A stretch of DNA of 64,000 bases from Dudresnaya verticillata (Eukaryota), in contig OZ374559.1 in the NCBI GenBank assembly GCA_977862235.1, forward strand, positions 930,001 through 994,000. The letters are read 5' to 3'. This document shows, piece after piece, positions 3,614 through 55,718 of this stretch. Both the position numbers and the translations under genes were made by a program. The number at the start of each line of letters is the position of its first letter. Position 1 is the first letter of the stretch. The notes below the pieces were generated by a model. The model was not told the origin of the DNA. It worked only from the letters and a program-made list of their open reading frames with translations, and did no database searches.

Positions 3614-4511
3614 TGTAGTGCCAGGGGGGTCCCCCGTTTTCGCTTTCAAGCGTTGATATGCAGCGTCTACCGACGGACGACCGCCAACGGCGCGCTAAAC
3701 CCGCCCGCGGCGCAAACACGTCACCGACGCATGCCGCTGGCCACTTGGGCCAGAACGGCTCGCTGAGCGTGCAGACCGCACGCCTGAACCCGGCCACTGT
3801 ACGGCGCCACGCGTGCGCGCGTGGCGCAGTGGCGGGAACGTTCGCTGTAGGCGTGGCCCGAATCCGGATCCCACATCGGGATCCCACATCGGGATTAAGG
3901 GGTGTAAGGCACGCGCCTGTAAGCCTGGCGCATCCGCATCGCTGGCCCGAATCCGGACTGGATCGGGATCGGTACGGATCGAGATCGCTCGCGCCATGAG
4001 GCGCGCGCGCGGCTGTAAGGAAAGGATCCACGTGTAGGTGTGAGGACTCGCGCGGGGAACTACGCGTGATCTGTCAGGAGCGCGGCTGCATGATGGACGG
4101 ATCTGTCAGACGCGCCTCGGGACAACACGTGTCCCGAGTTCCCGCGTTACGCGTACATCCGCGTCGCCGCCGCTAGGTAATCCTGTACTTAGTTGATCCG
4201 TCTCAGACGTCACAGTAAATCCCGGTAAGCCGGCCTTGGTCCAGACTTCCCCGTTCAGCACGCGCGTACCCTACCGCTGCCTACGGCTAAGCGTTTACCT
4301 CCGTGCTTCCACGTCTCTACCCGTCCTCGACGTGTTCCTTTTCTATTTCCTTTTGTTCTTCTTTTCCGCCAAGGGCGTTTACAGTCCGCCCAAGGCGAGT
4401 CAACCGCTCTACCACCAGACGCCCACGGCGAGGCCACTCATCGCCGCAGGCGTCGCTACCACCGAGCCCCGAACTGCTCGGCAGTGTCCGTCAAAGACGT
4501 TTTGCACTACA
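3614..4511 (+). repeat. 3' LTR of element A (898 bp)
   Basis: TGTAGTG/CACTACA inverted termini. Collinear blocks shared with the solo LTR at 20847-21786 (e.g. AGTCCGCCCAAGG, TCAACCGCTCTACCA, TTTGCACTACA). Confidence 0.85.
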
Positions 4512-6247
4512 CTGTGTAGTCGTCTCCCGAGCGTTGTGCCGCTATTGCCATTGCCACTGCCATTTCCGTCCGTATGTTTGGCTGAAACCCGAGCTGCATT
4601 CTATGTCGGGTGAAGCAAGCTTGCACTTCATATGCTATTGCTTTTTCGATGACTTTGCGGGCATGGGAAAGCAGGCAAATTGGGCGGTAGTTCCCTGGAT
4701 CCGCTTGGCAACCGCGTTTATGCACAGGCACGAGTGACCCGACCGTCCAGGTTGCAGGGAGATTTGAAAAGTCACCGCAGCGTTTCCACATCCAGAAGAG
4801 TAGTTCTGCGGAGAGTTCGGGGCACAGTTGTAGCATCTCAATATGTATGTCGTCCCTGCCCGTCGCGGTCCCTCGAGATATGTTTTTCAGGGCGCGTGTG
4901 ATGCTTCGTTGGAAACGCGGAGGTACGTAGAATGTTCGAGGCTTTGGTGCCGCGGGGGTGTCTCTAGATGTATCTGTGACAGTATCCATGTGTTTGGTGA
5001 AGGCTGTTGGCTGTAATCTTGGTCCCCCTGACATGTCCATCTTCGCACGACGGACTCGTTTTCGGTTTCGGGTCCGTATAGCTTGGGAGAGTATGGACTG
5101 TGGGCGCTGTAGTAGCTCTTCAGCCTCGCTCCGTTGCTGTTGCTTCTTGATGGCGCGGATACGGGAGCGTATGGTACGTTGGAGAGTTCGATACTCTTGC
5201 TCTGCTCTCTCTCGTGTTGGCGGAGTTCCTGCTGCCTTCATTCGTCGATAAGCTCTGGCCCGTCGGCGGCGTAATGGGTCCAAGTTTGGGGGGCAGTGTG
5301 GCTTGTTAGGTCTGGCTGCGTGGGAGAGCAGCAGCTTCCAGGGTTTTTGTAGAAGCTTTGGGAGCTCCTCCATGACTTTCTTGGCCTCATGGTGATTGTT
5401 GGCAATTTCTAAGTCTCTGAATGTATGTCGGTAGTGTATTTTCGTAGGCACGTCGCACTATGCTATGGTATCGGGGGTTAGTAAGGAGCGGTTTTGTGAT
5501 TCCGCAGCTTCGTTTCTCGGGGACATGGTCGAGCTGCAATTCACAGCACGAGGTGGGCTGTGTTTGGCGCTGCGGGAGTTCTACCAGGACCGGAGCGTGA
5601 TCAATAGCCCCGTCCCATTCTCCTGTTGCAACAAACGGGTAGAGGGGTCCCGAGGCATTGTACAGGCAGATATCAATGGTGCTCATACCTCCACTTCCGT
5701 TGGAGCTGAAGAAAGTCGGTTCCGGCGGTGCTTGGACGGTAAAGGGGTTTCGGGAGCACCACTTAGATATGTCCACTCCTTTCTCATTTCTCCGTGTGCA
5801 CTATGCCGTACTGCGTGCGTTGAGGTCACCAATGATGAGTGTAGGTCCTCGCGATCTCGCTTTAACAGTGTCCAGAATGGTTCTTATGTCTTCTTTTCCG
5901 GCTCTGGGGCTGATATATGCACCGTCTATGTCACCGACATTGGGGACTTCGAGGCATAGTAGTTGATATAGCGCCGGATGATGCGGCGGCTGGGGTAAGA
6001 TGGAATATCGAACAGATGCTTTCAGTTGTGGTCGGCTGATCATTGCAATACCTCCGAGCCATGGACCGTTGGTCCCAGCACGCGTTGCCAGAATTGTAAA
6101 GGAGGGGTGGGGCAGGTTATGATGTTGTGATGGAGGTGTGTGTGTTTCGTTGAGTAGTAGGACTTGGGGTTGGGCGGTGGTCAGGAGCGTTATAACGTCT
6201 GCGAGGCATGAATTTAGGCCCGCGACGTTCCAAGTCCCCACTAGCAT
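4512..6247 (-). mobile_element. Degenerate LINE ORF2: APE endonuclease plus N-terminal RT, interrupted by element A
   Basis: APE motifs GTWNVAGL, LNETH, GDLNA, TID, DHAPV. RT motifs ATGRDDI, VPVHKRG, NYRPICLLS, QLGF. Split by stops and frameshifts. Confidence 0.9.
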
Positions 6248-7581
6248 ATTTCTCCTGTGTTCTGAGGACTCGCTTTTACGGGGGGTGTGGTGATGGAATT
6301 ACGCGAGGCTTGGTTTTGATGTCTCGCAGGCATTGGGTCGGAGTTGGCCACAGCCCTGTTCTCCAATGAGGTAAGCTTCGCAAAGCCGCGCGCGGTTAGG
6401 GACGGGTACTGTCGTATGGTGGGGCTTCTTTGGGGGTCAGTTCTGGCTTGCGAATATGGGTGGGTGTCCATCGGGTCTGTATTTGGAAGAATAGAGTCAT
6501 TGCGGGATCCAGAGTTTTGTTTTTGGGTTGCGCCCGGTATTGTTGGGTTGAACCCAGTCCCCGCAGGTACTGTCTTGTCTTGAGGGGCGGTCTCTCATTT
6601 TGTGCGCGTCCATCATCTGCAAGGGGCATTCCCAATGGAATGAATGAACGATACGGGGTTGGGAGGAGCGCTGTCGAAGGCGCGTCAATCGCTTACTCCA
6701 AACAACGCCAGCAGTGAGAAATGACCCCCAGGCCGTCGTGGCTCAAGCGGTGCGCGCGTCGCCGGGTACGCCCCGGGCCGCAAGACCCACCAAACCACAG
6801 CACCCTCCGGCTGAGGCACCCGCTTCTGGTGGAAACTTAGGCTCACCGGGCACGTGACCCAGAAATACCCCCTCCCTGACTCCCCAAACCATGCGGGCAC
6901 ACCAGACATCTCTTCCTGTCACTCTAAACCGCCCACCAAGACAATTGATGAAACTTCCCCGCCCTGCATGCTGCCAACCTCAACCCTGCTCACGGAACCG
7001 ATGGCCGTTACGCCCGCTGTCACGCGCTCCACCTCCAGCCCGGCTACCCAAGGTATGCCCTCCAATCCACCCGTCGGTATAGCCGCCGTCGCCCTCCCTC
7101 GCGTTGGCGCCGAACAAGACCCTCCAAGCCGTCCAAGGACACCCCAGCCACCGGCATGGGCGCAGCCTCCGGTGCCCCCACTGCGATGCCATGCAAGACC
7201 CCGCCCACCAACCCGCCCAAAGACACGCTCCTCTAACGCGCTCACGGGCCAGTCGCAGTACTGCGGGTCACAATACACCAATCTACCAGTCCCGGCACAC
7301 CCAACCAAACGTCGCAACGTCCTCCACAACCCCTGCGACCCCCGCGCCCCTTAATCTGCACAATGGAAGTCCTGCATGCGGGTCTACTGCTAAGGCCCCC
7401 CAGGACATAGGACAGACAACGAAAGTGAGCCTACCCACCCGTCCACCACAACGGCAGAATCTACCGTCTGCCATGGAAAGCGCCAGCGCTCGTCAAGCAG
7501 CAGCACGCCACCCGGTACCAAGTCCTCCTTTCCCCGCCGCTCGCCACCAACACAACCGGGCGCAGAAACCCCCCCTCAGAA

Positions 7582-9237: not shown

Positions 9238-9510
9238 GAGAACGAAGGAAAGAACTTAGGGGAGACGGAGGGGTTGTCTAAGCTGGACTGCAGTGCTTAT
9301 ATCCCCTCCAGAACCTCTAAATTTGGTAACACCATATGGTTCAGCCCCAAACAGTGAAGTGCCAAATATAGTGCTAAAAGTTGCACAGACTCGTAGAAAC
9401 CCCTTTCGGGTAGATGTTCTATCGGGTTGTTGCTGCTTCAGGACGCTCGGCAGGGCTCGCTATCCCCAGTGAGGACTTTTCACCAGTGTAGACGCATCGA
9501 GACACAAACT
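9238..9510 (-). repeat. Direct repeat copy A2 of the DIRS-like element (273 bp)
   Basis: Matches 13219-13491 with about 7 substitutions counted by eye. Confidence 0.95.
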
Positions 9511-11010: not shown

Positions 11011-11013
11011 TGC

Positions 11014-35949: not shown

Positions 35950-38900
35950 GCGTTAATCGTGTGACGAATTGCGGAGCACGAAGTCGGGGCCACGGAACCA
36001 CTCGGGGTCCCAGTCGGAGAGCCATTCGTGGGCGAGTAGCACGGGATCACGCGGGTCTGCTTGGATTCGAAGCCTTGCGAAGTAGCGTGAAACGAGTTAT
36101 TTGGGCACGTGCGTACTAAGTTCCCACGTAGGCGTCGCGTAGCCGTCCCACTTGATACAAAACACGAATTTTCCGGCTTCGTCGGTCGAGTGATCGAGGA
36201 TGCGATCGACAACGTATTCGGGCCTTCGGTGACCTTTTCCGCAATGTCTTCGGGTCGCGTAATCGACGGTCGCGAATTCGTATGTGGTGGCGCGTAGATG
36301 CAGCGGTCCGCGGAGACGCGTTCAACGAGACCCTTGCTATCGATCACGAGTGTACGCGTGTCGTTGAAGAGCACTTTGTACGGCCCCTCCGCGGGGGATT
36401 TCAACTTCGGAAGTTTCGTTTTCCCATCGTGGGTATCGAGGTATACGTAGTGTCCGGGTTTGGCGCGGCTCTTCGTGTGGCGGATGCGCTTATCGAAGTC
36501 GCGTTTGTAACGGTTTTGAACTCGCTGTAACGAAGTGCGTGCGGAGTCGATGGCGAAATCGAGTCGCTTAACGAAATCGTTGCGAAGGTCCTCCGTGGGT
36601 TTTGGTCGATGCTTTTGGGAGCGCTGGGTCACAATGAACTCGGGCGGCGGTCGCGATAAAACGAGATTGAACGGAGTTGTCTTCGTAGACCGATGAACGT
36701 GGCAATTGTACGAATACGTTAACGCGGAGACATAGCGGTCCCAATCGTTTTGGTGGTCGTTCACGTAGTTACGAAGCATCACGAGGATAGTGCGGTTATA
36801 GAGTTCGGTTTGTCCATTCGTTTGCGGATGATACGCGGAAGTGAATACGTTCGATAACCCGAGTAAGCGACAGACGCCCTGAAAGAACTTCGAAGTAAAC
36901 TGTTTCCCGTTATCCGAGAGCACCGAGGCTGGCGGTCCATACTTGAATATCCAAACTTCGCAAAAGTAACGGCCACGTGATACGTGGTTATTACTCGTAG
37001 TGTGGCCACCTGGGTCAACTTCGTAAAGCGATCCGTAATCACGAGGATGAACTCGCGTCCGGATTTCGTTCGTGGTAACGGGCCTAAGATGTCAATCGCG
37101 ACCGATTCGAGTGGGCGCGTAGCGGGGAAGAGCTTCAAGCGATGAAGATTTCTTCGGAGACGGATTCGATTCCTTGCGCAATGTTTGCAATTGCGAACCG
37201 TGGATGCGATATCGGCTATCATGTAAGGCCAGTAATACGTTTCACGAAGCGAGTAGAACATACGATTTTGCCCCGGATTGCCAGCGAGTAACGAATGATG
37301 CGCCAGCGTGAGCAAGCGAGGTCGGAGCGTCTCGGGCAATACGATTTGCGTGAGCTTCGGAATCATTGGGTGCGTTCGTCGCAGGAGACCATCTCCATCT
37401 TCGTGAAAGAGACTATCCTTCGTTTTCGATTGTCGTGATTGCACCGTTTGGCAGAACGAATCAATACGTTGTCCTTCGAGGATTTCGGTTACCGTAATCG
37501 GCGCATGTAGGTCCACGGGTTTCACGTCGGTGAGGTCACTCGTTCTTCGTTGGGATCAATTCGATAAAGGTCAAACGGATCATCGTCATCGATATCGTCC
37601 CATAAATCGCAGTCATCGTAGACATCCTTTTGTCCTGCGTATTCATCATGTAGTTCTGCGTCGTGTTCGTGTTCACAGCCTTCGTGGCACGTATGATTGT
37701 GGGGTTCGGAACCCGGGGTGACCGCCGTGGATCGTGGCGTATTGCCTGCGCGGTGTACGCGTTTCGCGGGTGTAGTCTTTCGCGTAGAGTCGTGGCGAAT
37801 CGCGGTGGTCTTCGATTGACGTTTGCGGGAGCGCGTAGTAATGAGAACCGGGTCTCTTTCGTTTTCGATGGTTTTCGTGATGTCGTTGCGGAAACGTTCT
37901 TCGTTCTTCGCTGCGATTTGATCCGAGTCAAACGTAGGTACTTCTTCGTCGATTGCGGGTTGTTCGCGATGCGGAAGTAGCAATCGTGAGAGGGCATCGG
38001 GAATCTGGTGGACGCGACCGGGGCGATATACGATTTCGAAGTCGAATTCGGCTAAGCGAAGCCTCCATCGCGTGAGTCGCCCGGACGAATCGGTAAGGGA
38101 AAGAAGCCATCGGAGCGCATCGTGGTCCGTAAGCACGGTGAGCCGGGTCCCTTCGATATACGGACGCAACAAAGTAACCGCCCATACGACTGCGTAGCAT
38201 TCGCGCTCGGTTGCGGAGTAGTTCTTCTCGGCATCGTTTAACGAATACGACCAGTAGCCCACGGGTTGGAATTCTTCGTTATCTTGCTCCTGTAGCAATG
38301 CGCACCCGAGTTGATACGCAGACGCGTCCGTATCGACAATTTAACGTTTCCCGAGTTGCGGTAACCGGAGTATCGGTGGTGACACGAGCTTCCGTTTGAG
38401 CGTTTCGAATGCGGTAACCTGATCCTCCGTGGATTCTCGTAGCCGGGATCCGCATCCTTTCGCGTCATGTTCGTCAACGGTCGCGCAATTTTCGCGAAGT
38501 CTTTCACGAATCTTCGGTATACGTTACACGCGCCGAGGAACGAACGGACTTGCGTGAGTGTCTTCGGGAACTTCGCGTATCGGAATGCTTCGGAGCTCTT
38601 CTCGGCCATACGCAGCTTCCCCGGGGAAATTACGTGTCCGAGATAGTCGACTCGCTTTCGGAAAAGGAAGCACTTCTTCATCTTGAGCGAAGCGAAACCC
38701 CGGAGTTACGAAGTAGCGTGAAAACTTGATCGAGATGCGCGATGTGTTCACGAAGATTCGCGGAGAAAACGATCACGTCTTCGAGGTAAACGAGACAGCA
38801 CTGCCAACGGACTCCGGATAGAATGATGTCGAGTGCGCGTTGAAACGTAGCAGGCTCGTTTTTCAATCCGAAGGGCATACGAAGATAACGATAAGTTCCG

Positions 38901-40576
38901 AGAAACGAAGTAATAGTAGTCTTATCGCGGTCTTCCGGGGCAACCGGAATCTGCCAGTACCCACTGTTACAATCGAGTGTCGAAAAAATCGAAGCGTCTC
39001 CGAGTGAATCGATACAATCTTCCATCCGGGGAAGCGGGTACGCGTCGGATAGTGTCTTCGTATTGAGTCTTCGATAATCTACGCAAAAACGAAGTGTTAC
39101 GTCTTTCTTCGGTGCAAGGACTACGGGGGACGCCCACTCCGAGGTGGCTGGTTCGATTACTCTGGCTTCGAGCATACTGTCGATTTCGTTACGGACGATT
39201 TAACGTATTGTGGGCCTTTGACGATAGGGCATCGAACGAATAGGTCAAGTCCCGGGTTGTAGATCGATCCGATGCTCCGTGGCTGCGATCGTTCCGAGGT
39301 CTCCGTTCCACATCGATTCGTGCTTATGTAGCATCTCGAGGACCTCGTTTCGCATAGTTTCATCGGGTATGTTCGAAAGGTCTACGCGTTCTTCCCAATC
39401 GCGGGAACTCGAATTGGCTTCGGCTGCTGCAGTCGCGGCGCCCTTCGTGAGCGGTTTTTCCTTCGTGGATATGGATTCTTCGGGTGACTTCGAGTCGTCG
39501 TGCTCACGTAGCGTAGAGATGTTGAGCACCTTGGCAAACGAATCCGCGACTTCACGATCGGGTGTCAAAATCGCGAGCGGGTTTCGAGCTGCGTATCCGA
39601 TGACGGTTCCCTTCGGTAGAGCTCGAGGCTTATCCGTGAAGTTCGCCATCAACACCGAAAACTCGCGATTCGGACTGACTTCGTGTATCCCGTTCGTTAA
39701 CCGTACTCCGTGTCGGTGTTTTAACGAAGGCTTCGGTTCGATATGATTTAGTCCGAGGGCTTCCGAGGTCACGGTGACTAGCTTCTGCGAATAACTCGGT
39801 ATGGTGCCGCGGCGGTTCAAACAAATGGTACGGGTATCTCGGTCCCAATCGTGGAGCTCACGTTGGTGTCGCTGCGATAGCGTTTTCTCGAATTTCTGCT
39901 TCGGATTTTTCGAATTAGTAGCGGGTGGAGCCGATCCAGCAATGCGGTTGAAAATCGGAATCGTGCTTCCACTCTTCGTGATGAGCCTCCGTGGGCTGAG
40001 CTCGATGCTTCGTAAATGCGCGTCCATCCACGAAGTTCCAAGGAGAACGTCGACTGCGAGTTTCTCCGCAACCACGAAGGGTACGCGGTATCGAACGTTC
40101 CCAAGGCGGACTGTCAGGTAAACGATTCCATCGAGTCGCAACGGGGTGCGATCAGCGGACGCGAGCCTCGGAGCTGATTACATCGTGGACGCGTTCGCTT
40201 CCCAACCGGTGGGTAACGCAGCCCGGGCTATTAGGTTGTAACCGGAACACGTATCGACTGCAATCGTATGCGGCGTCATTACGGAGGCATCGAGGCCAAT
40301 GGATCCGGTCACGAGGAAGATCTCCGAAGTCATCAAGCAAACGTATCCCTCGGTGGTAACTTCGGATTCGATCTTCGAGATCGGTATCCTCTTCGAATTG
40401 TTTTCGCACGAAGCATCTTTGGCGAGGACTCGACATCGCTTTCGGTCTCGTCGTCGTGCGGCGCGCTTCCTTCGCATCGCAGCGGCTCTCGGAATCGGAA
40501 TACGCGGAGTGTCTCGGGGAACGGATTCAGACGAAGTACGTGACACAACGGGCGTCTTCTCCTTTACTCGTTTTCC
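35950..40576 (-). pseudogene. pol of element B (protease, RT, RNase H, integrase, chromodomain), multiply frameshifted
   Basis: AVDTCSGYNL, LRFCVDYRRLN, LDCNSGYWQI, YLED (variant of YLDD), NYSATERE, TDH, AIDILGP, SDNG, PQTNGQTE, EGPY. Chromodomain YVVDRILDH...KWDGY...TWE near 36120-36220. Confidence 0.95.
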
Positions 40577-43018
40577 GAACTCGAACTAGAATCCGAATTG
40601 CAAGCGTCCGCGTCCAATGGGGAGGTTGATCGATCACCTCTTCCGTTGTTCGCGGAGTCTTCGTAAGCCTCCGAGGGCAGGTTCGGGTGACTTGGCTCAA
40701 TCGCGTCAACATTTTCACGGACTGTGAGAACCTGTTGACGGCCCGGGGCCTGCGCGTGTCTCGGATTGCGGAGGACGGTAGGCGGCCCTCGACGCTCAAA
40801 GCTGACTTGACGCTGGGCTTGATCCCTCGGGTAGCGCGTATCGCCTTGACGAAGATCTCGGTTTACGCGATTGTCACGCGATCTTCGGGGGTCTTGTCCA
40901 CGGTGACCTCGATTGTCAACGGATGCGAACGAATTCCCTCTTGCGGCACCGCGATTCACGAAGTTATTACGCGTATACGGTCTCATCTCGAGTTGATAGA
41001 GATAGTTCTGATACGCGCAGTAGAGTTGTTGCTCCTTCGTGAGATACGGACACGAATAAATCAGGTGACCGATTTCGCGACAGAACCAACACGGCCACGC
41101 ATCCTGGTTCTTCGGGATCATCGAACGCGCTATCTCGATTTTCTCCGGGGTCATCAGGGGGACACGCGCGGGTACGAAACGCTCGATGCGACTCGTGAGA
41201 TCTAACGTATCGTCCACGGAGACCGTTGTCGAAGTAGTCGGTCTAGCGGATGTGGACCCGGTTCCTGAACGAATCATCATCACGGCCATTTGCGGATCTT
41301 CGTTCATCGGTTACTCGTATTCACTCCCGGGAGTGTCGCAAGCTTCGATAAGCATCGTGCGTCTGGGCGCTTGGCGACTCTTCGGGTACGTAGCGGACGC
41401 TCGGTTCTTCGAATCACGCGACTGTTGGGCCGCGGTGTCACGTAGTTCGCGAGCTAGGAATGTCGTGCCTTCGGCTTGCGCGATTCGTTGCACGCTCATA
41501 AAATTCTTTTGCTCGGACAGCGGTAGGCGTCGTACCTGGTCGGCCATGATAGGATACGTAGTAGGTAGTAATCCACGAATAAACTGGTGCGTTAACGAAG
41601 AGTCATCGTAGAAACCGGAGCAGATATCTACGTAGCCTTGCAAACGAGTCGCGAACTCCATCTCGGTTTCATCGGACTTCTGTTTCGCGGTTATCACGCG
41701 ATCGTGTGCGTCTGCGATTACGTCTTCAGTGAGAAATCGTTGTAGTAACACGTTCACGATCGCGGACCAGCAAACCGGGTTGCCCGTACGATCGCCTCCG
41801 AAGGCATAGTGTTGATACACCTTGAGCGCGGTCTCATCGAGAAACCACAAAATCGTATGAACTGCTGCTCCTTCGGTGAGCCCGACTCCGTTCAACGCTT
41901 GTCGAATATCACGAAGAAATGCGAGAACCTTAATCGGATCGCGTCCCGTAAACTTCTCCAGTCTCGGCATCATCGAACGCATGCGCGAAACGGTTTTCGA
42001 CGTGTTACCTCGGAATACTTCGTGTTGGTTATCCCGGGGTGACGAATTCGTGAGTCGATACGATCGATAGCTTACGGCCCGCGCGAATTCGGGAATGAGC
42101 GTCGCGAATTCGCGCGGGCCGTAAGCTATCGATCGTATCGACTCACGAATTCGATGACACGGGTCCCGCGAGCGCTAACGGATTTTCGATTACGGGTCCT
42201 CCGGGGGACATAGGTGGTTGAAGTGAAGCTCGGAATACTGCGGGGTTGATACGGGGGTTGTCGGAGGCATCGGTTGCCTGATTCGATAAGGGGTGCGGGG
42301 ACTGATTCGGATACGTGTTTTGCGGTAACGTAGATTGGGCACCCGGGCCTTGCACGGGTTGAACTAGCGGCGAATTGCGGGGGTCAGGACGGGCTTCGGG
42401 ATGACCTTCGCGACTTCGAGACTTCGGTAACGCTGCGGACACGATGTCACGAATAGCGTTCAACTGTTCCTCGGAGAATGCGTGCGAGCTGCGAACGGGA
42501 AGCGAGTGACTCCCCTTGCCCACGGGGGCGGATACGTTGCGCTCGAGCACGAGAAACCGATTGCTGACTCCCGAGACGAGATCCCGGAGACTCTCGAGTG
42601 AGTCTTCGATCCTACGGACCTTGCCAGCGCGGAGATTGTTGAACTCTTCGTGAACTCGATTGTGTGTATTACGGATTGAAAGCTGCGTGATACGGTACGC
42701 GGTAGAAAGCGCATCGATGACCTCTTCGTAGAGTAAACGTAGTTCTGAACCGGAGACTTCCTTAATCGAGAAGAGTCGATCGACGGTATCCGAGGGAACG
42801 ATTTCCAACGGAGTGTACGTATACGAAAGGTCGGACTGGCTACCGTAAGCCTGCGAACGCGAGTCTGTGCGAAGATCGGGTACCGTTATTCGTGAAGCGC
42901 GAGTGCGAGAAAACGGTTCTCGGTCACTCGCATTCGAGTCGAACAACGGGAGCTCCGGAATCGGTACGTCATCGGATTTCGGTACCGGCGAATCGGGGCG
43001 CCTCGGAGCGTGAGACAT
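40564..43018 (-). pseudogene. gag of element B with CCHC zinc knuckle, broken by a 49-nt inverted duplication and a premature stop at 41311
   Basis: FTGRDPIKVLAFL and EGAAV align with gag of element C. Knuckle CWFCREIGHLIYSC. Confidence 0.9.
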
Positions 43019-43070
43019 CGTGTCTCGGATAGAAACGAATTAAGAATAAATGCGAAACTTCGGGACCACG

Positions 43071-43088
43071 TTCTAGGTCGGGAGACCA
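43071..43088 (-). promoter_or_regulatory. Primer binding site of element B (probably tRNA-Tyr)
   Basis: TGGTCTCCCGACCTAGAA begins 1 nt after the 5' LTR and is identical to the PBS of element C. Confidence 0.9.
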
Positions 43089-43089
43089 G

Positions 43090-43932
43090 TGTGGTATAAC
43101 GAAGTCCACGGTGACGCGGGGAAGTCTCGCAGTGTAAGGAATGGCCTCGGAGCCAAACGAATGGCCTCGTAGCCTAACGGAGAAACGAAAAGGGGTGGTA
43201 GCGTGGTAGAGCGGAGCGACCAACACGAAGGACCACGGTGTCAACGTATTCGTGTGCGGAAGGGAGAAATCGAGCGATCGATCACCGGGGATGACTCCGG
43301 GTGCGTGGGGCTATCGAAAACGAGGCTCGACCGTATCCGCGGTCACGAAGACGAGGACACCGAGCTCGAAGAAAAAGGGGTTTACCGAAGACTCCGAGGT
43401 CCGGGCGCTAGTCGCTTATCGGAAACCCTGGAAGGTTGTGCCAGACGACTGGCTAAGTAATACTACGTGAGCACGAATGCACGTCAACGCGGGAGACGGT
43501 TCGTACTCGAATGATTCGTAACGGCCTCGGTGCCAACGAACGGTCGCCTCACGTATGGTGGCGGTTGCGAAGTGCGCCAGCGATGCATACGGAGGTGCGC
43601 GTGTCTCGTGGGCCCCGGTGCCTTTATGCGCGGGAAACAACGGGAAAGTCACGAAGGTGTCAGCGATTTCGTATCGGGTGCGCACTGTAATGCGAATGCC
43701 ATCGTGGCGCGCGCGATGATGAAGTCGGCTCGGGATTCGTCCGGAGGTGTCAGCGATTTCGTATCACGTGCGTGCTGTAATGCGAATGCCATCGTGGCGC
43801 GCGCACAGTATGCGCACTGTAATACGATTGCCATCGTGGCGTGCGCATTCACGGAGTCATTTCGAAATTCGTATTTCTTGATTATTTTCACGTAGGTCAC
43901 GGAGTCGTTTCACGGATAGCGTCTATACCACA
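43090..43932 (-). repeat. 5' LTR of element B, 843 bp
   Basis: TGTGGTATA...TATACCACA termini, followed on the minus strand by the PBS and gag. Confidence 0.95.
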
Positions 43933-44693
43933 CAGCCATATCACCCGGGCGGTGGTGCGCCTGTCATTCCTTACAGAGGACTCGTGTCCACGCGGCTCCT
44001 TACAGGCCGTCAACGCCCGTTGTACCACATCAGGTGCAAACATGCAGATGCTGTGCCGACTTCAACTTATCATCACATCATGCACACATCAGAATCGGTG
44101 ACATGACATTGAGAAGCAACGGAATAATTTCATTGTCAAACGGTCTTTAAGCAAAAGATTGGTTTCAAGTTGATGAGCATGCGGTAATATGTATCGGAAA
44201 ATGTTTATGTCTGTGGCCGCAATTTCAGGTTGGCCTGTCTCATAGTGGGTTTATTATTGAAACAAGTTTTGTTTTACATCGTGAATCGATGCCCTCTTCC
44301 GCCCCCGTCCTCGAGTGAGCGACGACTGATAAAGAGTCTCGCCTCCCACCGACCCTCGGCGGGGTCGCTCAGAGCGGCCAAACAAAGGGGTGAAGTCCCC
44401 CTGCCATAACTGACATCCTAAAATATCATTAAATCTAAGACATACGCCAACATCAAATCACTCGCGATCTGGCGCCAAAGACAAATGCGCGCAATTATAA
44501 AGGAAAAGTACATAAAGGGCGCAATACGAACCCGTTCGTATTGCGCTGCACCCCTACCCTGGAGAGCAATCCGGACGAAATCGACGCTGGCGCACCAGCC
44601 AGGGCCACTGACGTAAGCGCGTTACTCGCCCGGCCTGTCGGCGCGAGTACGACACTGTATGACAAATTCCTATAGTGGACACTCCGTGCGTTG

Positions 44694-45211
44694 TGTAAGG
44701 AAGTACCTTTTGGGTCTCTTGTGAACTCAAAGAGTGCACTCAATGAGAAAGCCACAGAGCGGGTACCTGGTAGCGGTGGTAGAGCGGGAGGAACCCAGAG
44801 GGTAGACAGGGCACGTAACCTGATTGGAAGCACGATACTGAAGGTAGTTCACTGGGCGGGGGGTTAACCGGGCACGGGTGACAAGTGTGCTGCGGTGCCG
44901 ATAGCTTGGAGACGTAGTTGGGGCCGGAAGGTGCTTACCTTTACTGTTCAGTGACCGCTACGGGAGATACCCTTATATGGTACTCCGACTGTCAGGCAGC
45001 AACCCTCATACTGGGCTATATACACGCCCCCTATCCTAAGCTATAATTTCTAAAATAAATACACAGATACTAAGCTACTGACCTGCAGAGTGACACTTGG
45101 ACCAATCATAGGCTACCCGTCTTGTCCCTGCTGGCGCCCTACAGGTAATGCTATTTCCGCGTATACACGGGGGCAGAGGGCCCACTTCTGTAAGCCCTTC
45201 ACTGTATTACA
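44694..45211 (-). repeat. 3' LTR of element C (518 bp)
   Basis: TGTAA...TTACA termini. Differs from 54054-54572 by about 3 substitutions and 1 indel by eye. Confidence 0.96.
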
Positions 45212-45214
45212 GAG

Positions 45215-45224
45215 CCCCCCCCCC
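45215..45224 (-). promoter_or_regulatory. Polypurine tract (G10) of element C
   Basis: C run on the plus strand, 3 nt from the 3' LTR. Confidence 0.8.
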
Positions 45225-45398
45225 GAGATTGCGGCCCGTCCTCGGGACGCCAGGGCAGCCTGCACGTGTTTCGCGCGAAATCATAACCGTTTGGTATCCA
45301 GACGGCTCGACGCCCATGACCGTCGTCGGCCGGCAATCGATCCCGCGTGCAGCAGTACTTCTCTTCCGCAGCAGCATCACCTCAAAGGTTTTTCCAAC

Positions 45399-47626
45399 AT
45401 GGTCCCACGTCAACCGCAACCAACACCACGCCGTTCACCACCCCGTCGTCGTCGTCTCTCCAACCCCGACGTGGTCGTTCCAGTCACGCCTTGCGTAAGC
45501 CGCGGAGGTTACTACGCCGCGATGGCCCAGTCTTCCCCCATGGGTGGCCATGGCGGTTTGTCGGCGTTTTCCAACCAGGAGGTGCTGGAGCAGTTTCCAC
45601 TCCAAGGTTACCTCGTGGACACTCATCCGGACACCTACCGCTTCCGGGCGATCCCCGAGGGTAAGCGCGAGAACCAGTGGGTTGCGCATCTGCGTCACTG
45701 TCCGCCGAGCGTCCTCGTTCCAAACCACTATGGTAGTGACCTCAAGTGGCTGCGTGTCGGGTTCGAAGAAGACTACGTCCCCTCCCTCTACCGCTTCCTT
45801 GAGGGTAACCAGTGGGTGAACGAGATCAAGTTACTTCCTGAGTCACTCCTGGAGTCGAAGCCTTTTCCCGACCTGTGGTGGTTGACCGAGCGGTGGGCCG
45901 TGGACATCTGGACGGAGACGCGCATCCGCAACCGTACCGATGGTCTCCTAGCGGGGTTTCACAACGTCGAAATGTGGAATATCCCCATGGGTCGGCGTCG
46001 TGATTACTATGTGAAGAACCCAGCTGGTGGAACGCCATCGAAGGTCCACGCTCCTTGCCGTCGTTAACTCCGGGAGTGTTGGCGTACTTCGGCGCCCATG
46101 CGCGGGACTCGGCGGCGAAGTGGTATTACCCGGTGTGGTCAATCGCCAAAACCGAGCAGGTACTCCACGTAGCGCTCGCCTTCCTTCAGGCAGCCTACTT
46201 TGGCATGTGGGACTCGACGCCCTATACCGAAGCTGGTTATCATACCCAAGATGGTCTACCGGATGGTCGTCTCTTCCGCTTGTCTAAGACAATCATCGAG
46301 GCCATTCGCACCCTCGGGGTTGACCTGATTTGTGGGGGTAGTACCTTTGCGGGTGAGGACTTGGCGGGACTACTAACCGCATCGGAGACCTTCAAGTGGG
46401 CTGCCGGCGAGGTTTGGGTTGCATATGACCCTGAGATTGCCGAAGCGGTTGACCGATTTGGTAGGCGACATATCGTTGATAACCGTCCTGGTCCGCCTCT
46501 CTACTCTTTTGGTGAGGCCGGGGGTATGGGTCGTGGCTGGGGTCACATGGGGCCGAACTCGGAGAGAAACCAAGTGGTCGACGACGATGAGGCGCCCACC
46601 TACAGTGGTTACCCCGACCGGGCGCGAGCAGTGTCAGGGCCAGTGACTCCGGCGAGGACTGCGCGCCTGGGTCTGGGGGCGCGTCCGGGGACTCCAAAGC
46701 CACGAGCGGCACCGGGGACAGTAACGCAAATGCGTGAGGCGCGTCCGGCGACACCCGCACGGGCACCCTCCACTGGCTTACCACCGATGGTAACTCGCGA
46801 AGCGGCGGCTGGACAAGTTAACCCATTGGCTTCACCGAGTGGTCCCTCTTGTGCAGCGACGGTCCCAGCTGGAATGACCCTTTCTACCTCTGGTCACCTT
46901 AAATTTGGTCGACTTCAAGAGGCGTGTCGCGCTGCAAAGGTTCCGGTACCGGAAACTGTAGAGGAGGCTCTGGATGCCGCTCGGGAGTGGGTGTCGAAGG
47001 AGGCCCTCCTGACCTGGTTACTCCGGGAGGTGGCCCAGATGGGGAACTTCCAAGTGAACCAACTCGGTAACCATATGGCAACGATGGACCGTTTGGGAAC
47101 CGAAGTGGCCAACGTCCGGGCGTCTCTTGCGAGCATGGCGGCGGCGATGCCGCAGAACTCCACGAGTTTCGTCACCTCCCGTACCAAGTTCACCCGGGAG
47201 GTCTTACGCAAGAGCGATATTCAGCCGAAGGCTTCCGCTCATGGCGCGACCGATTCGCTAACCCAAGTGGTGAACTATCAACCGGGTGACCCTTTGGCTC
47301 TGGCGTCGCCGGGGCCCGCTCAGGGAGCTGAGCGGCAATCCGCTGCTCCGTCGGATATTACCAAGATGGTTGTGGGGGGGCCGCCTAAGGAGACTCCAGC
47401 TGGCTCCTCTACCTATCAAGTGACGCAGCCTCTTCCTGCCGGGGTTACTACCAGTGTGGCTACTCCCGTGGAGGTAGGGAGCCGAGCGGCGCTGCCCGAA
47501 GCGACTCCTAGAGTTATCACACCTGCGGAGACTCGTAGGGCGTCTCCTTTCCAACCCCGTCGCCTTGCGTCTTCTCGTTCGGGCGACTTCGAGGAGTCGG
47601 TTAGGAAACGTTCCCGTTACCAGTAG
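45399..47626 (+). pseudogene. Antisense accessory ORF of element C (one frameshift near 46040-46060)
   Basis: ORFs 45090-46067 and 46055-47626 join into one protein-like sequence ending RKRSRYQ. AATAAA at 47671. Shares motifs with the ORFs of A and B. Confidence 0.7.
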
Positions 47627-47862: not shown

Positions 47863-50800
47863 CTAACTCCCTGAGTGACGCTTCACGAGATACTTTGGAG
47901 TCTGCGAAAATCCACGAAGTCTACACCCCCCAGCTCCAGGCGGTGGCGTCTTGTCAAGCCGGTGCCAGTAGCGTAACACAAAGTTGTGAGGGATGTGCGC
48001 GGCTGGCTCCCAAGTATCGTCGTTAGGGGCATAACCATACCAGCGAACCTTATATTGGTAACCACTGTCGGTGACACGGTGCTTAACCAAGTGGTCAACT
48101 GTATAGTAATCCGAGTGGGTGGTCGCCGTAGGCAGCGAAGGAGCCGATGGTGGATCCTGAGTAATTTCCGGGTCGTCGAGAGGGGCGCGGGGACCACGAT
48201 GAGGGTCAACCGAAATGCGGTCTTGTGAAACGGTATTAAAAAGTCCATATTGCTTAATAGTAACCGTATGGTTGGCATGAACGGCGGTAACCAGAAAGGG
48301 TCCGGTCGCTTTGGGCAAAAGTTTCCTAGAAAGGTTCTGCTCCTCGGCGGGGTCGACGAGGGAAGCCTGTCGTTCACCAACTTGGCGTTTAGTGAACTTG
48401 GGGCGATCGAGGTAAACCCACTCACCAACAGTAACCGAGAAAGGCCGTGCCACGGAGGTGTCAAAGGCAGATTTGTAACGTTGTTGGGCAGCCGTAAGGG
48501 TGACCTTAGCGGTAGCAATAGCCTGTTGAAGTTTCCGAATGGTTAAACGCTTAACCGAAGCAGCGGTGAGTTGCGAATCCAATTGATTGGTAACACCCGT
48601 TGTGGGAGAACCCTGTAGAGGTATAACCGAAGGTTGCCGGGATAGGACGAGATCAAAGGGCGAGGTACCCGTAGAGCGGTGAACCTGAAGGTTGTACGCA
48701 TAGGTAAGCGGATGTACGTAACTGTCCCAGTCGCGCTGATGATCTGCGACGTAATGACGTAACCGCTGGACAAGGGTCTTATTGAACCGTTCGACCTGAT
48801 CATTGGTCTGGGGGTGGTAAGCGGTTGTAAATAGCTGACGTAACCCCAGGGTTTGGCAGATCGTGGCAAAGAACTTTGACACGAACTGTGGACCATTATC
48901 GGAAAGCACATATAGCGGAACACCGTAAGGGTAGACCCAGTGGTCGAGAAAAGCTTGCGCAACCGTACGGGCATTGGTATTCCGTAAAGGTATGGCGCGC
49001 GTAAGCTTAGAAAACCGGTCGGTAATATCCAAGACGAAACGGTTACCGTGTTCTGTTTTCGGAAAAGGCCCCGCGAGGTCCATAGCAAGGAATTCCAGTG
49101 GCCCAGCGGCGGGAAATAACTTAAGGTAGTTCTGATGTTTCCGTAAGGTACCCCGATTTTGGACACACTTAGTACAGTCACCCACAACGGCATATGCGTC
49201 ATTAGCCATATAAGGCCAATAAAAACTGTCGCCGGAGGGTATAATACATTCTTGAACCACCAGGGTGTCCGGAAAGGAGAGGATAGTGGGCCAAGTATAG
49301 GATACGGGGACGCAGGGACTTTGGCACCACTATCTGAAGTGCTCCGTCGAGTGTCGCTTGGCGGATTAGAAAACCATTATGGTCCCACTGGATTTGAGAG
49401 CCCGCTATACCAACTTGGTTAGCCATCTTTTGGCAATACTCATCCCGTGATTGTGCCTCTAGGAGTTCTGCTTGCTAACCTGACGGGGTAAACCTTTTTG
49501 GTTTGCCAAGTCACGGACGGTCGGTAAATTGAGCTGACGCGGGGTGCTATTTTCAACCGCGAGGGTAAAGCAGGGGATGTCATCGTCCAATGGGGTTTGG
49601 TCACTCCCTGGAGTCGAAAGCCTTGAAATGGTGTCCGCCAAATGATGTTCCCTTCCAGGATTGTAGGTGACTAGGAAGTCGAACTCCGAGAGTCTTAAAC
49701 GCCAACGTGCTAGGCGACCCGATGCATCCGAGAGGTTTAACAACCACTGAAGGGGTTCGTGGTCGGTTCTAACCGTAAAGCGGTCACCTTCAAGGTAAGG
49801 TCGGAGTGTTAAAAGACTCCATACAACGGCGAGACATTCCCGCTCGGTAGCCGAATAATTACGCTCAGCGGAATTAAGAGTGCGACTCCAATAACCAATA
49901 GGCAGCTTATCCCCTTGTTCGGTTTCTTGAAGTAAACAACAACCAACCTGAAGGTCGCACGCATCGGTATCTACGTAATAACGGAATCCCTTTCGAGGTA
50001 ACGCCAATATGGGTGCCGTTAAAAGACGACGCCGGAGTTCGTCGAAGGCGTCGTATTCATCCTCTGCGAGTGACTCAAAAGTGAAGGGTTGATCCTTGCG
50101 GAGTTTTCTGGAGAGCGGAGACGCAATGCGTGCATAATTAGGGACGAAGCGTCGATAGACGTTACATACTCCAAGAAATGACCTTAACTCGGTTTGATCC
50201 GTGGGAGGTTTCGCCTGGCGTAGTGCGGTAACGTTCTTGGAGGCGACTTACAGCTTTCCTGGGCGTATGACATGGCCGAGGTAATCGACGGACGCCCCGA
50301 AGAACTTACACTTAGATAACTTAAGAGAAACCCCTGCGGTTCTTAGTAGATCAAGCACAGTACCTAAATGGTGGAAGTGGTCATTAATACTCCGAGAGTA
50401 CACGATAACGTCGTCGAGGTAAACCAAAGCGTATTGCCACTTGCATCGAGATAAGATAATGTCGACTGCCCGTTGGAATGTGGCGGGCGCATTCTTGAGA
50501 CCAAATGGCATCCTGATAAAACGGTATAACCCTTCGTGGCAGGTGAACGTCGTCTTTTCGCGATCGTCGGGATCGACTTCAACTTGCCAATAGCCACTAT
50601 TACAGTCGAGCGTCGTAAATATCTTAGCGTCTCCCAGCGAGTCAATACATTCGTCCATTCGAGGTAACGGATATGAATCTCTCCGAGTAATACTATTAAG
50701 TCGGCGATAGTCGACGCAAGAACGTAGAGACCCATCAGGTTTGGACACCAGGACGACGGGACTGGCCCATTCTGCCCCAGAGGGTTCAATAACGCCTTCG

Positions 50801-51930
50801 CGTAACATTCGTTGTACTTCCGCCTTTTCGGCTTCCCGAGCTTTAGGGCCAGCTCTATAAGGGTGTTGATAGATGGGTTTTCCCCCTTCCATCAACTCAA
50901 TCCGATGCTGAGTGGCCTTAATGGTGCCCAGTTGGCCTGACCACATTTCTTGATACTCTTGAAGCATTTCCATGATTTGGGATCTAGTAGCACTGTCTTC
51001 GACACCTATATGGACAGTGTCTTCCCAACTGGGTTCCGCTTTTGGCTGCTCCCCCTGGGTATCCGACCGGGGATCTTCTAGTAGAGTTCCAATACTCAAA
51101 ACCTGATCCGGTCTTGGTAACGCATGGCCTACTACTTGAGTCTTCTTCAAGCGAGCAGGGCGATGACCAAAATTGGTCATTAGCACCGGAAAAACTTCCA
51201 TAGGAAGAACATCCCTAATCCCATTTGCCATAATGGTTAACGACTTATGTAGTGACCGCGGGGTATTATGAACCAGGCATAATCCAGATGCACTGGTTCT
51301 CACCGGCACAAGCGAACGTGACCTAGGAGGTATAACCCAATCTTTGGCTATTCTCACTTTGGTAGAAACCGTTGGTTGTTTAGCGTCGGGAACAGCAACT
51401 CCTCCCATAGAAACACCGAGAATAGGTACTGCTGGGGCATCCTTCAAGAGTAACATTCGGGGTCCCGGCATGATGGCTGTGACATGTCGATCGATGAAGG
51501 CTGTTCCAAGTATAACCTCGGCAGGCATATTAGCAACAACCAGAAAATGGGTCTTCGTATAGAGATTAACGACACGGATATATAAGGGGATGACTCCTAG
51601 AGGTAATATTCGATTATTAGAAGCGTCGACGATGCTACGCGTGGTTTCCTTATAGGGTTTGGCTTGCTCTTCCCAACCATTAGGTAACATTTTAACATGA
51701 ACCAGATTGGGTCCGGCGCCAGAATCAATCACGCCCCTTGCGGATATCATCTGAGATGACCAGACCCCTAACGATAGATCCACTTCGTAGTTTTGCTTCT
51801 TAAGTAAAAATACTTCATCATAGTCATCACCCTCCAGGTTATCCACGACATCGGGTCGTAATACGGGTTCTGGAAGGCGCATATTTGAGGAGGGGGCATG
51901 CGTCGTTATGCCTTCTCCTCCACGTTTTCC
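47863..51930 (-). pseudogene. pol of element C (protease, RT, RNase H, integrase, chromodomain) with premature stops and a frameshift
   Basis: IDSGA, YLDD, DTDAC, NYSATERE, AMDLAGP, SDNG, GPF. Chromodomain YTVDHLVKH...YKVRWYGY...DTWEP. Stops at 50248 and 49459. Confidence 0.96.
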
Positions 51931-53938
51931 GCAATGGAAACTCCTTGAGCTGCCTTTGAGGGCTCCACTGAGGGTGATCCCGTGCGTCTAGCCTGGGTGG
52001 GGCCCGGATGGCCTGTTGAGGAGGAGGCCCCGGGTTACCTTGTCGATTACCTTGCATGGCTCGGGCCCGAGCTAAACCATAGAGGTTTTGCCTTCTGGAA
52101 GCAATTATGCCAGCGCGAACCGCGGGGGTTACCAATGGACATTCATGTGCCATGTGGGCTGGGTTAGCACGGATCCAACATGCCCGTATCGGCGCACCAT
52201 CTCGGGATCCCACTGTGGTTATCGAAGACGGGGGTGTCATAAACTGGTTAGATAAGTCTTCACCAAGTTGGAAAATCTCCTCTTCTTGAATGTCTTCCAT
52301 GCCCGGTAAACCCTCGGAGGTAGCTGTCGACGTACTTACGGAGTGAGACGGCGGTTTCTCGAAGCTAACCGCGGCGACGGGAATTACTCCCCTTTTACCC
52401 TTTAGGTTAGTCGTCCCACGTGTACTCCTATGAGCTTCTCCAAGGTCTTGTGCATATTGTGTAATCTGCGTGTAGGACAAACTCTTTGAGGAAGCCAATC
52501 GGTTACGAACCGGTGCACAGATACTCGGGAGGAGTCCATCAACGAAGATCGCCTTGAGGCGGTGTTCAGTAAACACCGACTCGCAACGGCGAGCTCTGGC
52601 TCTTACTAACTCTGCGAAGTCCCGTTCCGTTTTTCCTTCTGCTTGTCTCAACGAGATTACGTCAGCATAGGCTAGCGCAATAACCTCATCGGTGGCATAA
52701 GTTTCCAAAAGGTAATTAACCACTTCGGGGTACGTTGTCAACAAATCTCCCTCATCTTCGGAGTCCACAACCATACAGGTTCTTGTCTGTAGCCTGGCCT
52801 GAAGGTTGTCCCTTGCGGTTCCTGCCATAAAATATTGTAGTAACCAAACGGCAGCTCCTTCATGGATATCATTTTGGTTACAGGCATCCTTGAACCTTGC
52901 TAGGAAACCCAAGATGTTAATCGGGTCTACCCCCGAAAACCGAGAGGGTGGCATCTGAATAGCCATCCTCTTATAGTAGGTATTTACTTTCCGAGAGACT
53001 CTCGAAGAGTAAAGCCTTGAGCGGTTATCCAATCGGTAACTTTGAAAGCTAACCACTCGGGTAAATAGGTCGTTAAGGGGTTTAATCCTCCTGACCTTTG
53101 TAGGTTTAGACGACCGGCGACGGCGCCGTCGGTCATCATCGGATGAATCATCCGAACTTGAACCATCTGAGGTAACTGACGATGAGTCAGACTCAGATGA
53201 GTGATGTTTCTTCTTATTTTTCTTTCGTTTGTCCTTCTTCTTCTTCTTTTTAGAATTCTTGGACTTCGATCCTTGTCGGTTACTCCTACTACCTTCGGAG
53301 TCCGACAAACCCCCTTCGGGTTCCTTTTTTGTATCACCAGTTTCGGTTGGTAGAACGATGCCAGGAGGGACGACATCATCCTCCCTATTTTCCACTTTGG
53401 TTTCCCCTATGGGTTTAGACTTTGGTCCAGTTGAAAGGTCCGCTGCTTGCCCATAGGCCTCGAGAGACTGAGCGACCAACGGGGGAACCATTTTGGTAAG
53501 CATCCCATAGATTGGACTACTGTCCGGCTGAGTGGTCCATGACTGGACTAACTTGTCAGTAGCCGTGGCGGCAAACTCTGATAGTGTCCTTGGACCTTGT
53601 TCCTCTAGAAAGTGTCCCACTAGTGGTTCAACCGTTTGAGGTAACCGAAGGGTCAACTCATCATGTAGCCAGTTGATCCGACGGGGCATCAGATCAGTAT
53701 TGACCCAATGGTTACGGTTGGAATGTAGCGGGGGCTGCCTTGCGACTTCTTTCGAAGGACCGGCTAAGGGTTTACCTGTTACGGGATTGGTGGATGCTTG
53801 ACCAGGCGGTTCCTCTTGTTCTACTCCAGGAGTTCTCGGAGGGTGGAGCAAAGACTCCGGGTCCTCAACTGGGGGGACCAATGGGGTCTGCTCCGCCTTC
53901 TGACCACGACGGGAACTACTTTGAGAGTGAGTTGACAT
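51906..53938 (-). pseudogene. gag of element C (degenerate zinc knuckle, probable 1-nt indel near the 3' end)
   Basis: Long ORF after the PBS with a Lys/Ser-rich tract, FSGVDPINILGFL, and CWIRANPAHMAHEC. Confidence 0.88.
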
Positions 53939-54033
53939 CTTGGAGTAACAGGGGCCTTGGTGGGTTGATTTTCTTCAGTATCCAATTGAGTTACGATATT
54001 CGTCGTCCTCTTAACGGCTCACCAACCTTGAAG

Positions 54034-54051
54034 TTCTAGGTCGGGAGACCA
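54034..54051 (-). promoter_or_regulatory. Primer binding site of element C (probably tRNA-Tyr)
   Basis: TGGTCTCCCGACCTAGAA begins 2 nt after the 5' LTR. Confidence 0.9.
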
Positions 54052-54053
54052 GA

Positions 54054-54572
54054 TGTAAGGAAGTACCTTTTAGGTCTCTTGTGAACTCAAAGAGTGCACT
54101 CAATGAGAAAGCCACAGAGCGGGTACCTGGTAGCGGTGGTAGAGCGGGAGGAACCCAGAGGGTAGACGAGGGCACGTAACCTGATTGGAAGCACGATACT
54201 GAAGGTAGTTCACTGGGCGGGGGGTTAACCGGGCACGGGTGACAAGTGTGCTGCGGTGCCGATAGCTTGGAGACGTAGTTGGGGCCGGAAGGTGCTTACC
54301 TTTACTGTTCAGTGACCGCTACGGGAGATACCCTTATATGGTACTCCGACTGTCAGGCAGCAACCCTCATACTGGGCTATATACACGCCCCCTATCCTAA
54401 GCTATAATTTCTAAAATAAATACACAGATACTAAGCTACTGACCTGCAGAGTGACACTTGGACCAATCATAGGCTACCCGTCTTGTCCCTGCTGGTGCCC
54501 TACAGGTAACGCTATTTCCGCGTATACACGGGGGCAGAGGGCCCACTTCTGTAAGCCCTTCACTGTATTACA
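54054..54572 (-). repeat. 5' LTR of element C (519 bp)
   Basis: Direct repeat of 44694-45211. Confidence 0.96.
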
Positions 54573-54992
54573 CGTTGCTGTGTTTCAAATATAGTGATAT
54601 TGAGAAACCAAATGCTAGAATAGCGTAGGATATGTTTCGAGTGCAAGATACCCTGTTTACGGTATTCCACAGGTATTTGAACTTGTGAGGCGCTACATGG
54701 CAGTGCGCACAAGGGATAGCAAGCTTCCGGTACTGAAATCTGCAGTGCGATACCACCACGAATACGTAATCTAAACAGATGAAGGAAATAATTGGGTTAT
54801 ATGAGCATGTGGTCGACAAAAAGCGATCATCTCGAACTCCTAGAATGTAACATGACACGTAGCTGTTTCTACGGCAATGTAAAATCAATCACACCTGGCG
54901 TCTCTCTTGTCTGTCAGGGCGTCGGGTATGAGAGTGGTTAGAATAGAGTGTTTTTCAGCCAACTGTAGAAAACCTAGTGCTATTAGCGCTAC

Positions 54993-55718
54993 TGTGGTAT
55001 AACGGGCGTTGACGCCCTGTAAGGAGCCACGTGGACACGAGTCCTTTGTAAGGCATGACAGGCGCACAATTGCCCGGGTGATACGGCTGGTGCTCCGATT
55101 GATTTCATTGCTGGAACGCTCCCGCGCTGTAAGACAACACGTGTACAGAGTTGGTATGTAAGGCGCACTTATCCAGATGATATGGCACTGTGCCATTTGG
55201 GGATTAACTATGGCCGCTCCATCGCGCCATGCATTGCTCGTGGATGTTTGCCCCGCGGCGCCTGACAGTGGCGCCGCGCTCGCCTTGTGGCCTGATCACT
55301 CATTCCTATCTAAGGACATATCCTACCTGTATTGTACAGTATTAGCTAAGTATTAGCCATAGAGCTCTAACTGAGCGAGTAGCACCTTTTCGGCTCTCGC
55401 CGTATTGATGGGGCCCCTGAGTAGCAGGGGCCGGGACTAAACCGGCAGCGGTCTGTGCCTTGGGGCTTCCCCTTTTTGGGCGCTTGCGGTGCAACCGCTA
55501 CAAATTCCCTTTGGGCGTCTACAAGCCCTGTCGTCTACGACGAATTGCTCTATTCAGCAGGGTTCGCCTTTCCCTTTTTCCTTTGTCAGGGCTTTAAGCC
55601 CTTTCAAGTCTCTACCACCCCTTTACCGAGCTACCAACCACGCGAGTGGGATCGCTCTTTGAGGACAGCTGTCGTGCCGTGTCGCCGTCTCTGTTGGCTT
55701 CAAAGCCATTCTACTACA
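54993..55718 (+). repeat. Intact solo LTR of family D (726 bp)
   Basis: TGTGGTA...TACTACA termini, TSD GCTAC on both sides, homologous to the split copy at 30532-44029. Confidence 0.93.

Follow-up and report, generated by a model that had tools for sequence, protein, structure and literature searches.

A conserved pair of short words in the long terminal repeats of red algal Ty3/gypsy elements, a candidate accessory binding site for the primer tRNA-Tyr

Extra pairing between a primer tRNA and its template RNA has so far been established for a few models (Ty1, Ty3, Gypsy and HIV-1), element by element and at the bench. According to the available parts of the papers cited here and below, Ty1 and Ty3 harbour tripartite sites through which initiator tRNA-Met is paired in its T and D arms; those of Ty1 are located in GAG and those of Ty3 at the RNA 3' end (PMC4974528, PMC5371799, PMC7969010). 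Both primer packaging and initiation require this box pairing in Ty1 (PMC4974528, PMC7969010). The second tRNA-Lys2 site of Drosophila Gypsy is 11 nt long, lies near the 3' end, matches the anticodon and T stems and is dispensable for cDNA synthesis (PMC1635307). In the available text of a survey of long terminal repeats (LTRs), the conserved motifs are the terminal repeats, AATAAA, a GT-rich stretch and TATA, with no such box (PMC3601003). Here we describe two short conserved words in the LTRs of Ty3/gypsy-type elements found in a 64,000-nt stretch of the Dudresnaya verticillata assembly (contig OZ374559.1, positions 930,001 to 994,000, forward strand), hereafter called the window, to which all coordinates refer unless stated otherwise. 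The initial annotation of this stretch, made from the letters alone, had proposed that a word complementary to a tRNA D-arm precedes the 3' end of every LTR and takes part in bipartite primer binding. Its appeal to Ty1 and Ty3 as elements with extra tRNA-pairing boxes agrees with published descriptions, for both, of additional segments able to pair with the T and D arms (PMC4974528, PMC5371799).

All nine sites claimed for this word are present at their window coordinates. With at most one mismatch, the 11-mer CCGCTCTACCA occurs 9 times in the window versus 0.99 expected, and the core CTCTACCA occurs 10 times versus 1.18 expected; in neither case did any of 100 shuffles contain as many. Seven of the LTR-borne sites are 11-mers and two are cores only, and the three remaining matches (at 49402, 57714 and 29858) lie outside LTRs, a number close to the chance expectation. 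The core, which we call box 1, is located 83-121 nt from the LTR 3' end in all nine TG...CA LTRs, which form four families, A to D. The claim that every LTR carries the motif therefore holds for the TG...CA LTRs found (9/9), but a direct repeat (9238-9515/13219-13496) is devoid of it. The element sense assigned to the motif is confirmed for families B and C by their PBS (primer-binding site) and gag-pol genes and for family A by a purine tract and an antisense open reading frame (ORF), whereas for family D it is deduced only from the motif itself and from an LTR end that resembles that of L008, a PBS-bearing LTR from another assembly.

The four families had been described as dissimilar, and blastn comparisons of A, B, C and D representatives indeed yielded no match at E<=0.01. 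Nevertheless, B, C and D show signs of kinship: the LTRs of families B and D have their terminal 9 nt in common, and the reverse transcriptases (RTs) of elements B and C are 61% identical. This RT identity indicates that the LTR families belong to one clade in which the motif was inherited, with the proviso that families A and D are known as LTRs only and have no coding region to class them by. The question thus becomes why the motif alone survives.

A second conserved word, GCTACC (box 2), was overlooked in the initial annotation. It lies 1-40 nt 3' of box 1, is exact in 7 of the 9 window LTRs and shows one change in the remaining two. In an unbiased word count, CTCTACCA was the only 8-mer common to all nine representative LTRs, and GCTACC was the only 6-mer outside CTCTACCA common to all nine; when an LTR that had first been chosen by its motif (L035, see below) is set aside, the result is 8/8. 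In 1000 trials with shuffled LTR ends from six independent groups, no 8-mer was found in more than four of the six groups. Of the two copies of the common CTACC, the first invariably reads CT-CTACC-A and the second reads G-CTACC, which is their order in the antisense tRNA, and the letters that precede CTACC differ between the two boxes in the way that the tRNA predicts. In family A, the 36-40-nt spacers between the boxes are predicted to form hairpins, with 1 and 8 of 1000 shuffles being as stable; among LTR windows of the same length, 5 of 172 and 5 of 181 were equally so. The two-box element is real and strongly conserved.

We also collected elements from other assemblies. A PBS scan of prokaryotic assemblies gave nine stretches, six of them retroelement contigs contaminating two bins and three of them bacterial. 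Both boxes are present in the four PBS-picked elements with more than 150 nt upstream (4/4), with 74-87 nt between the end of box 1 and that of the LTR. The fifth foreign LTR, L035, was first chosen by its motif and later recovered through LTR similarity. Alignment of one foreign LTR with family B showed 21 identical bases exactly over the two boxes and nothing else alike. RT searches of 257 and 301 genomes and of viral contigs added one further clade member, L059, which is cut at the PBS (matches in G299 and G390 are left out of this count). The PBS is identical in all eight clade elements seen, two in the window and six in other assemblies. The tandem LTRs of L031, which belongs to a different gypsy clade and has a different PBS, are devoid of the motif; this is one case. 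Four PBS-pattern matches (L002, L003, L005 and L010) were dropped as non-retroelement.

Other features of these foreign sequences were observed. Four of the LTRs (L028, L029, L035 and L037) harbour, at approximately 270-480, a palindromic, hairpin-like block that comes just after a stretch rich in AT and might serve as a transcription start or dimerization element. The bacterial bins G001 and G002 (L004, L006-L011 and L012) carry eukaryotic contigs, at least 13 of which, in G001, have a gypsy RT. The same contaminated bins contain a cluster of tRNAs of the animal type (L012) as well as a contig that is AT-rich and organelle-like (G001:C4).

The 18-nt PBS of element B (43071-43088, minus strand), to which that of element C (54034-54051, minus strand) is identical, is complementary to the 3' end of a tRNA-Tyr(GUA). 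Tf1-type self-priming was ruled out, as the PBS matches the tRNA over 18 nt. Scanning metagenome contigs for a T-loop combined with the PBS complement returned a sole locus, L001, an intron-bearing tRNA-Tyr(GUA) gene of another organism, whose 3' end matches the PBS at 15 of 15 positions before CCA. A Maf-family gene (PF02545, positions 172-963 of L001), the only named relative of which is bacterial, is arranged head to tail against this tRNA gene. The initial proposal of a tRNA-Tyr primer with a matching D-arm is thus supported at the tRNA 3' end but only partly in the D-arm, where L001 fits the 11-mer at 8 of 11 positions. The complementarity is also wider than first claimed, as the 5' half of the L001 tRNA is complementary, in order, to both words. 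With tRNA positions in their usual numbering, box 2 matches positions 6-11 of this tRNA from another organism perfectly (6/6), and box 1 (CTCTACCA) matches positions 17-24 with a single mismatch at C20 (7/8). The non-cognate, animal-type tRNA-Tyr of L012, which has U20, G26 and G27, fits the 11-mer at 11/11 and box 2 at 5/6.

The presence of G at tRNA positions 6 and 7 was predicted and recorded before L001 was seen, and L001 has both; its G7, on which the box 2 match depends, is part of a G7-U66 wobble pair. A collinear match of both words was obtained in 16 of 200,000 shuffles of tRNA positions 1-58 and in two of 20 ARAGORN tRNA calls, a set enriched for similar D-arms, one of the two being L001. 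In several families the complementarity goes beyond the boxes. Box 2 of family D extends over 10 of 11 tRNA positions (6-16), and box 1 of family A extends in register over positions 28-33 (A1, the first family A copy) and 28-32 (A2, the second) of L001, at which it is unlike the animal-type tRNA. The box 1 extension of family B covers positions 28-29 of the animal-type tRNA. There is no tRNA gene in the window, and the cognate tRNA was not found in the viral contigs, in which the match L063 is not a tRNA, or in the six contaminated assemblies. In the 257 genomes, its pattern gave, outside G001, only single-mismatch matches at about the control rate, these matches being uninspected.

With the conservation and position of the boxes, the PBS, the identity of the tRNA and the complementarity to a homologue of the primer established, we propose that the two words probably represent an accessory binding site for the primer tRNA-Tyr in the LTRs of this Ty3/gypsy clade, which would open and hold its D-arm. 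The boxes are presumably transcribed, since in family C and the foreign LTRs they lie 240-600 nt downstream of the LTR stretch that is richest in AT. Annealing of the tRNA to the PBS would free its 5' acceptor strand (positions 1-7). Box 2 (GCUACC) might then base-pair with positions 6-11, and box 1 (CUCUACCA), which is often extended, might do so with positions 17-24 or 17-27. The boxes would invade the D-stem from both sides and take both of its strands, leaving positions 12-16 unpaired opposite the 1-40-nt spacer, and the resulting pairing may hold the primer for packaging or for the initiation of reverse transcription. An extended version of this proposal, which we consider unlikely as a whole, places the boxes in R, at both RNA ends. 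A PBS-anchored tRNA-Tyr with its D-arm wholly unzipped would then clamp the RNA ends and guide first strand transfer, the clamp would be the single conserved internal LTR feature across a clade of red algal chromoviruses, and the LTR would predict the D-arm of the host tRNA (U20, G26 and G27).

A number of observations weigh against pairing with the primer. L001 has C20, A26 and U27, so that box 1 is mismatched at its centre and the 11-mer scores 8/11. The 8-nt core is exact in 9 of the 20 tRNA calls and present with at most one mismatch in 16 of them, in a biased set, and the D-arm word of box 1 alone is generic. Duplexes between the last 200 nt of the LTR and positions 1-30 of the L001 tRNA beat shuffles (p<=0.05) in 2 of 9 LTRs, versus 7 of 9 with the non-cognate L012 tRNA, and therefore the pairing hypothesis requires U20 in the host tRNA. 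Pairing with tRNA positions 28-58 reached p<=0.05 in 1/9 and 0/9 LTRs. Co-folding of U5-PBS with the tRNA, the check suggested at the outset, was run on six leaders with L001 and turned out unfavourable, with box 2 paired as proposed in one leader and box 1 in none. The PBS, at 18 nt, is already full and needs no supplement, unlike the 8-nt segment of Ty3. The uridines of D-loops are usually dihydrouridine. In M-MuLV, tRNA modifications abolished the extra contacts (PMC13191261). Two PBS-bearing stretches, L006 and L008, have no box in the 56 and 102 nt available upstream, respectively; of these, L008 speaks against the hypothesis but is at most weakly informative, since it is sister to family B, whose boxes sit 107-121 nt from the LTR end. 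Finally, additional CTACC copies are found near the boxes in 5 of 8 LTRs, which favours a repeated protein site.

Such a tandem CUACC/CTACC site might be recognized by Gag or nucleocapsid on the RNA, as a packaging signal, or by a host factor on the LTR DNA, an explanation that we regard as possible though doubtful and in which the D-arm likeness would be a coincidence, aided by the repetition of GGUAG in D-arms. It is in line with CTACC being common to both boxes and present in 2-4 sense copies, with zero antisense copies, in the last 200 nt of 8/8 LTRs, with the variable box spacing (1-40 nt), with the invariant A of box 1 that faces C20 in the only cognate-type tRNA seen, and with the scarcity of the expected pairs in co-folding. 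However, it leaves unexplained why CT-CTACC-A always comes first and G-CTACC second, as they do in the antisense tRNA, why the words of families A and D are extended in register, and why the match is G7-specific. We also considered long-range pairing inside the element RNA: none of five elements had a sequence exactly complementary to box 1, and G-U-tolerant complements were found in three of the five, approximately as expected by chance.

Much less probable than a protein site, in our view, is that the motif belongs to a signal for 3'-end processing or termination where R meets U5. Its distance to the LTR end is fixed, pyrimidine-rich stretches occur nearby in several LTRs, and AATAAA is absent near the motif in nine LTRs, such that some other signal must serve; but the tandem LTRs of L031, of another gypsy clade, do without the motif (one case), and 3'-end processing gives no reason for a collinear complementarity to the primer. 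We attach still less probability to the idea that the antisense strand is an RNA polymerase III A box, acting as a TFIIIC site or insulator and D-arm-like because tRNA genes contain A boxes. The antisense 11-mer does fit the A box consensus at 11/11 positions in 6 of 12 LTRs, the overall range being 8-11 of 11. Against this, none of the 12 LTRs has a full B box within 120 nt (best 7-8 of 9 positions of the consensus), the positions left free by the A box consensus are invariant here whereas its terminal GG varies, and the spacing of the two boxes is never the native 5 nt.

Elements B and C are Ty3/gypsy elements, as shown by the order RT, RNase H and integrase between TG...CA LTRs (Pfam). The gag-pol region of element C (47863-53974, minus strand) codes for RT, RNase H, integrase and a chromodomain at the integrase's C-terminal end (PF00385, E = 1.1e-11), which identifies this element as a chromovirus. 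No chromodomain was detected by Pfam in the scanned ORFs of element B, whose pol is frameshifted. Among the best 120 of 5482 matches, the named relatives of the C RT include proteins of Agarophyton chilense and Palmaria palmata, and these RTs group with that of C with a support of 99/97 in a 25-row tree. A further window ORF (28385-29539) matches Gracilaria domingensis proteins only (3/3). Together, these affinities make a red alga the likely host. Clade elements also harbour, between pol and the 3' LTR, long ORFs in antisense orientation (896-3223, ~32650-34245 and 45054-47626 in the window, and in L020, L021 and L029); the five window frames scanned had no Pfam match.

Element C is bounded by a 5' LTR (54054-54572, minus strand; box 1 at 54137-54147 and box 2 at 54129-54134), which is followed by the PBS, and by a 3' LTR (44694-45211, minus strand; box 1 at 44777-44787 and box 2 at 44769-44774), which is preceded by a G-rich purine tract. 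The two LTRs are 99% identical, and the element has a 5-bp target site duplication (TSD). The 3' LTR of a family A element cut by the window start (A1, 3614-4511, plus strand) has a purine tract directly upstream and the antisense ORF at 896-3223. Its box 1 (CCGCTCTACCA, 4404-4414, plus strand), the 6 nt upstream of which match L001 tRNA positions 28-33 in register, is separated from box 2 (GCTACC, 4455-4460, plus strand) by a 40-nt spacer (4415-4454, plus strand), and the hairpin predicted for the latter, the one equalled by 1 of 1000 shuffles, would bring the boxes together. The solo LTR A2 (20847-21786, plus strand) has a 5-bp TSD, box 1 at 21682-21692, a box 2 variant at 21729-21734 and a 36-nt hairpin spacer. 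A solo LTR of family B (21916-22673, plus strand) harbours box 1 with one mismatch at 22542-22552 and a box 2 variant at 22554-22559, and one of family D (54993-55718, plus strand), with a 5-bp TSD, harbours the core at 55610-55617 and box 2 at 55630-55635.

Element B (31167-43932) has a TSD and a PBS, and the same 5 bp are found at both of its outer ends, inside a family D LTR that it splits into a 3' part (30532-31166, minus strand; with the core at 30632-30639 and the end of an extended box 2 at 30612-30617) and a remainder (43933-44029). Its 5' LTR (43090-43932, minus strand) harbours box 1 at 43204-43214 and box 2 at 43197-43202. The other LTR (31167-32009, plus strand; box 1 at 31885-31895 and box 2 at 31897-31902) is inverted relative to the element, such that the U3 ends of these two 97%-identical LTRs both face outward, and there is no purine tract at the inner junction. 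The inverted LTR likely reflects a nested opposite-strand LTR followed by a deletion between 9-nt terminal repeats, or else an assembly error. It now points into an antisense ORF (open frame 31789-34245). The U3 region of family B (31295-31466 and 43633-43872) contains a 63-90-nt tandem duplication with 92% identity, a candidate enhancer repeat, of which the solo copy at 22044 has one unit.

Elsewhere in the window, the motif-free direct repeats mentioned above (278 nt, 97% identity, without TG...CA ends) flank frameshifted ORFs that, by eye, resemble the RT of a DIRS/Ngaro-type element, with no Pfam match. Weak, sub-cut-off Pfam matches were obtained at 58185-58721 (phospholipase A2-like) and 23245-24246 (CCCH finger and a bestrophin-like stretch).

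Among the open-literature titles and abstract openings listed, a coverage that leaves subscription papers, Repbase and bioRxiv supplements outside, none deals with the motif or with Tyr-primed red algal elements, and the available text of 10.1101/2025.02.11.637652 and PMC10025401 makes no mention of the motif. The arrangement of Ty1 and Ty3, in which a short 5' PBS is completed in GAG or at the RNA 3' end, is not found here. If they pair with the primer as proposed, the boxes would be akin to the multipartite PBS of Ty1 (PBS, BOX0 and BOX1), whose short additional segments, set apart by loops, are complementary to the tRNA's T and D arms. Ty1 belongs to the copia type, uses initiator tRNA-Met as its primer and has its boxes in GAG, 3' of the PBS, whereas the elements described here are of the Ty3/gypsy type, have an 18-nt PBS for tRNA-Tyr and carry the boxes 67-121 nt upstream, inside the LTR, with a match to the 5' third of the tRNA only. 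Ty3 and Drosophila Gypsy are likewise Ty3/gypsy elements and have a second tRNA-binding site (PMC5371799, PMC1635307), and in Ty3 the D arm pairs with the element RNA (PMC5371799). Unlike the boxes, the second sites of both are found at the RNA 3' end, in U3 or upstream, and the 5' segment of Ty3 is only 8 nt long. HIV-1, with its primer activation signal and A-rich loop, combines a full 18-nt PBS with upstream leader contacts to the primer, as is proposed here (PMC13191261), but those contacts target the T arm and the anticodon loop, whereas the boxes face both strands of the D-stem. Such a layout, directed at both D-stem strands and located upstream of a full-length PBS, is undescribed in the available parts of the literature compared. 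The candidate site stands out through its conservation alone, across otherwise unalignable LTR families and in at least two assemblies. Through natural covariation, the boxes make it possible to test how common such pairing is and to what extent it is needed, and they supply a short signature with which to orient and classify solo LTRs in red algal genomes. If the pairing inference holds, they would work like the known accessory primer sites.

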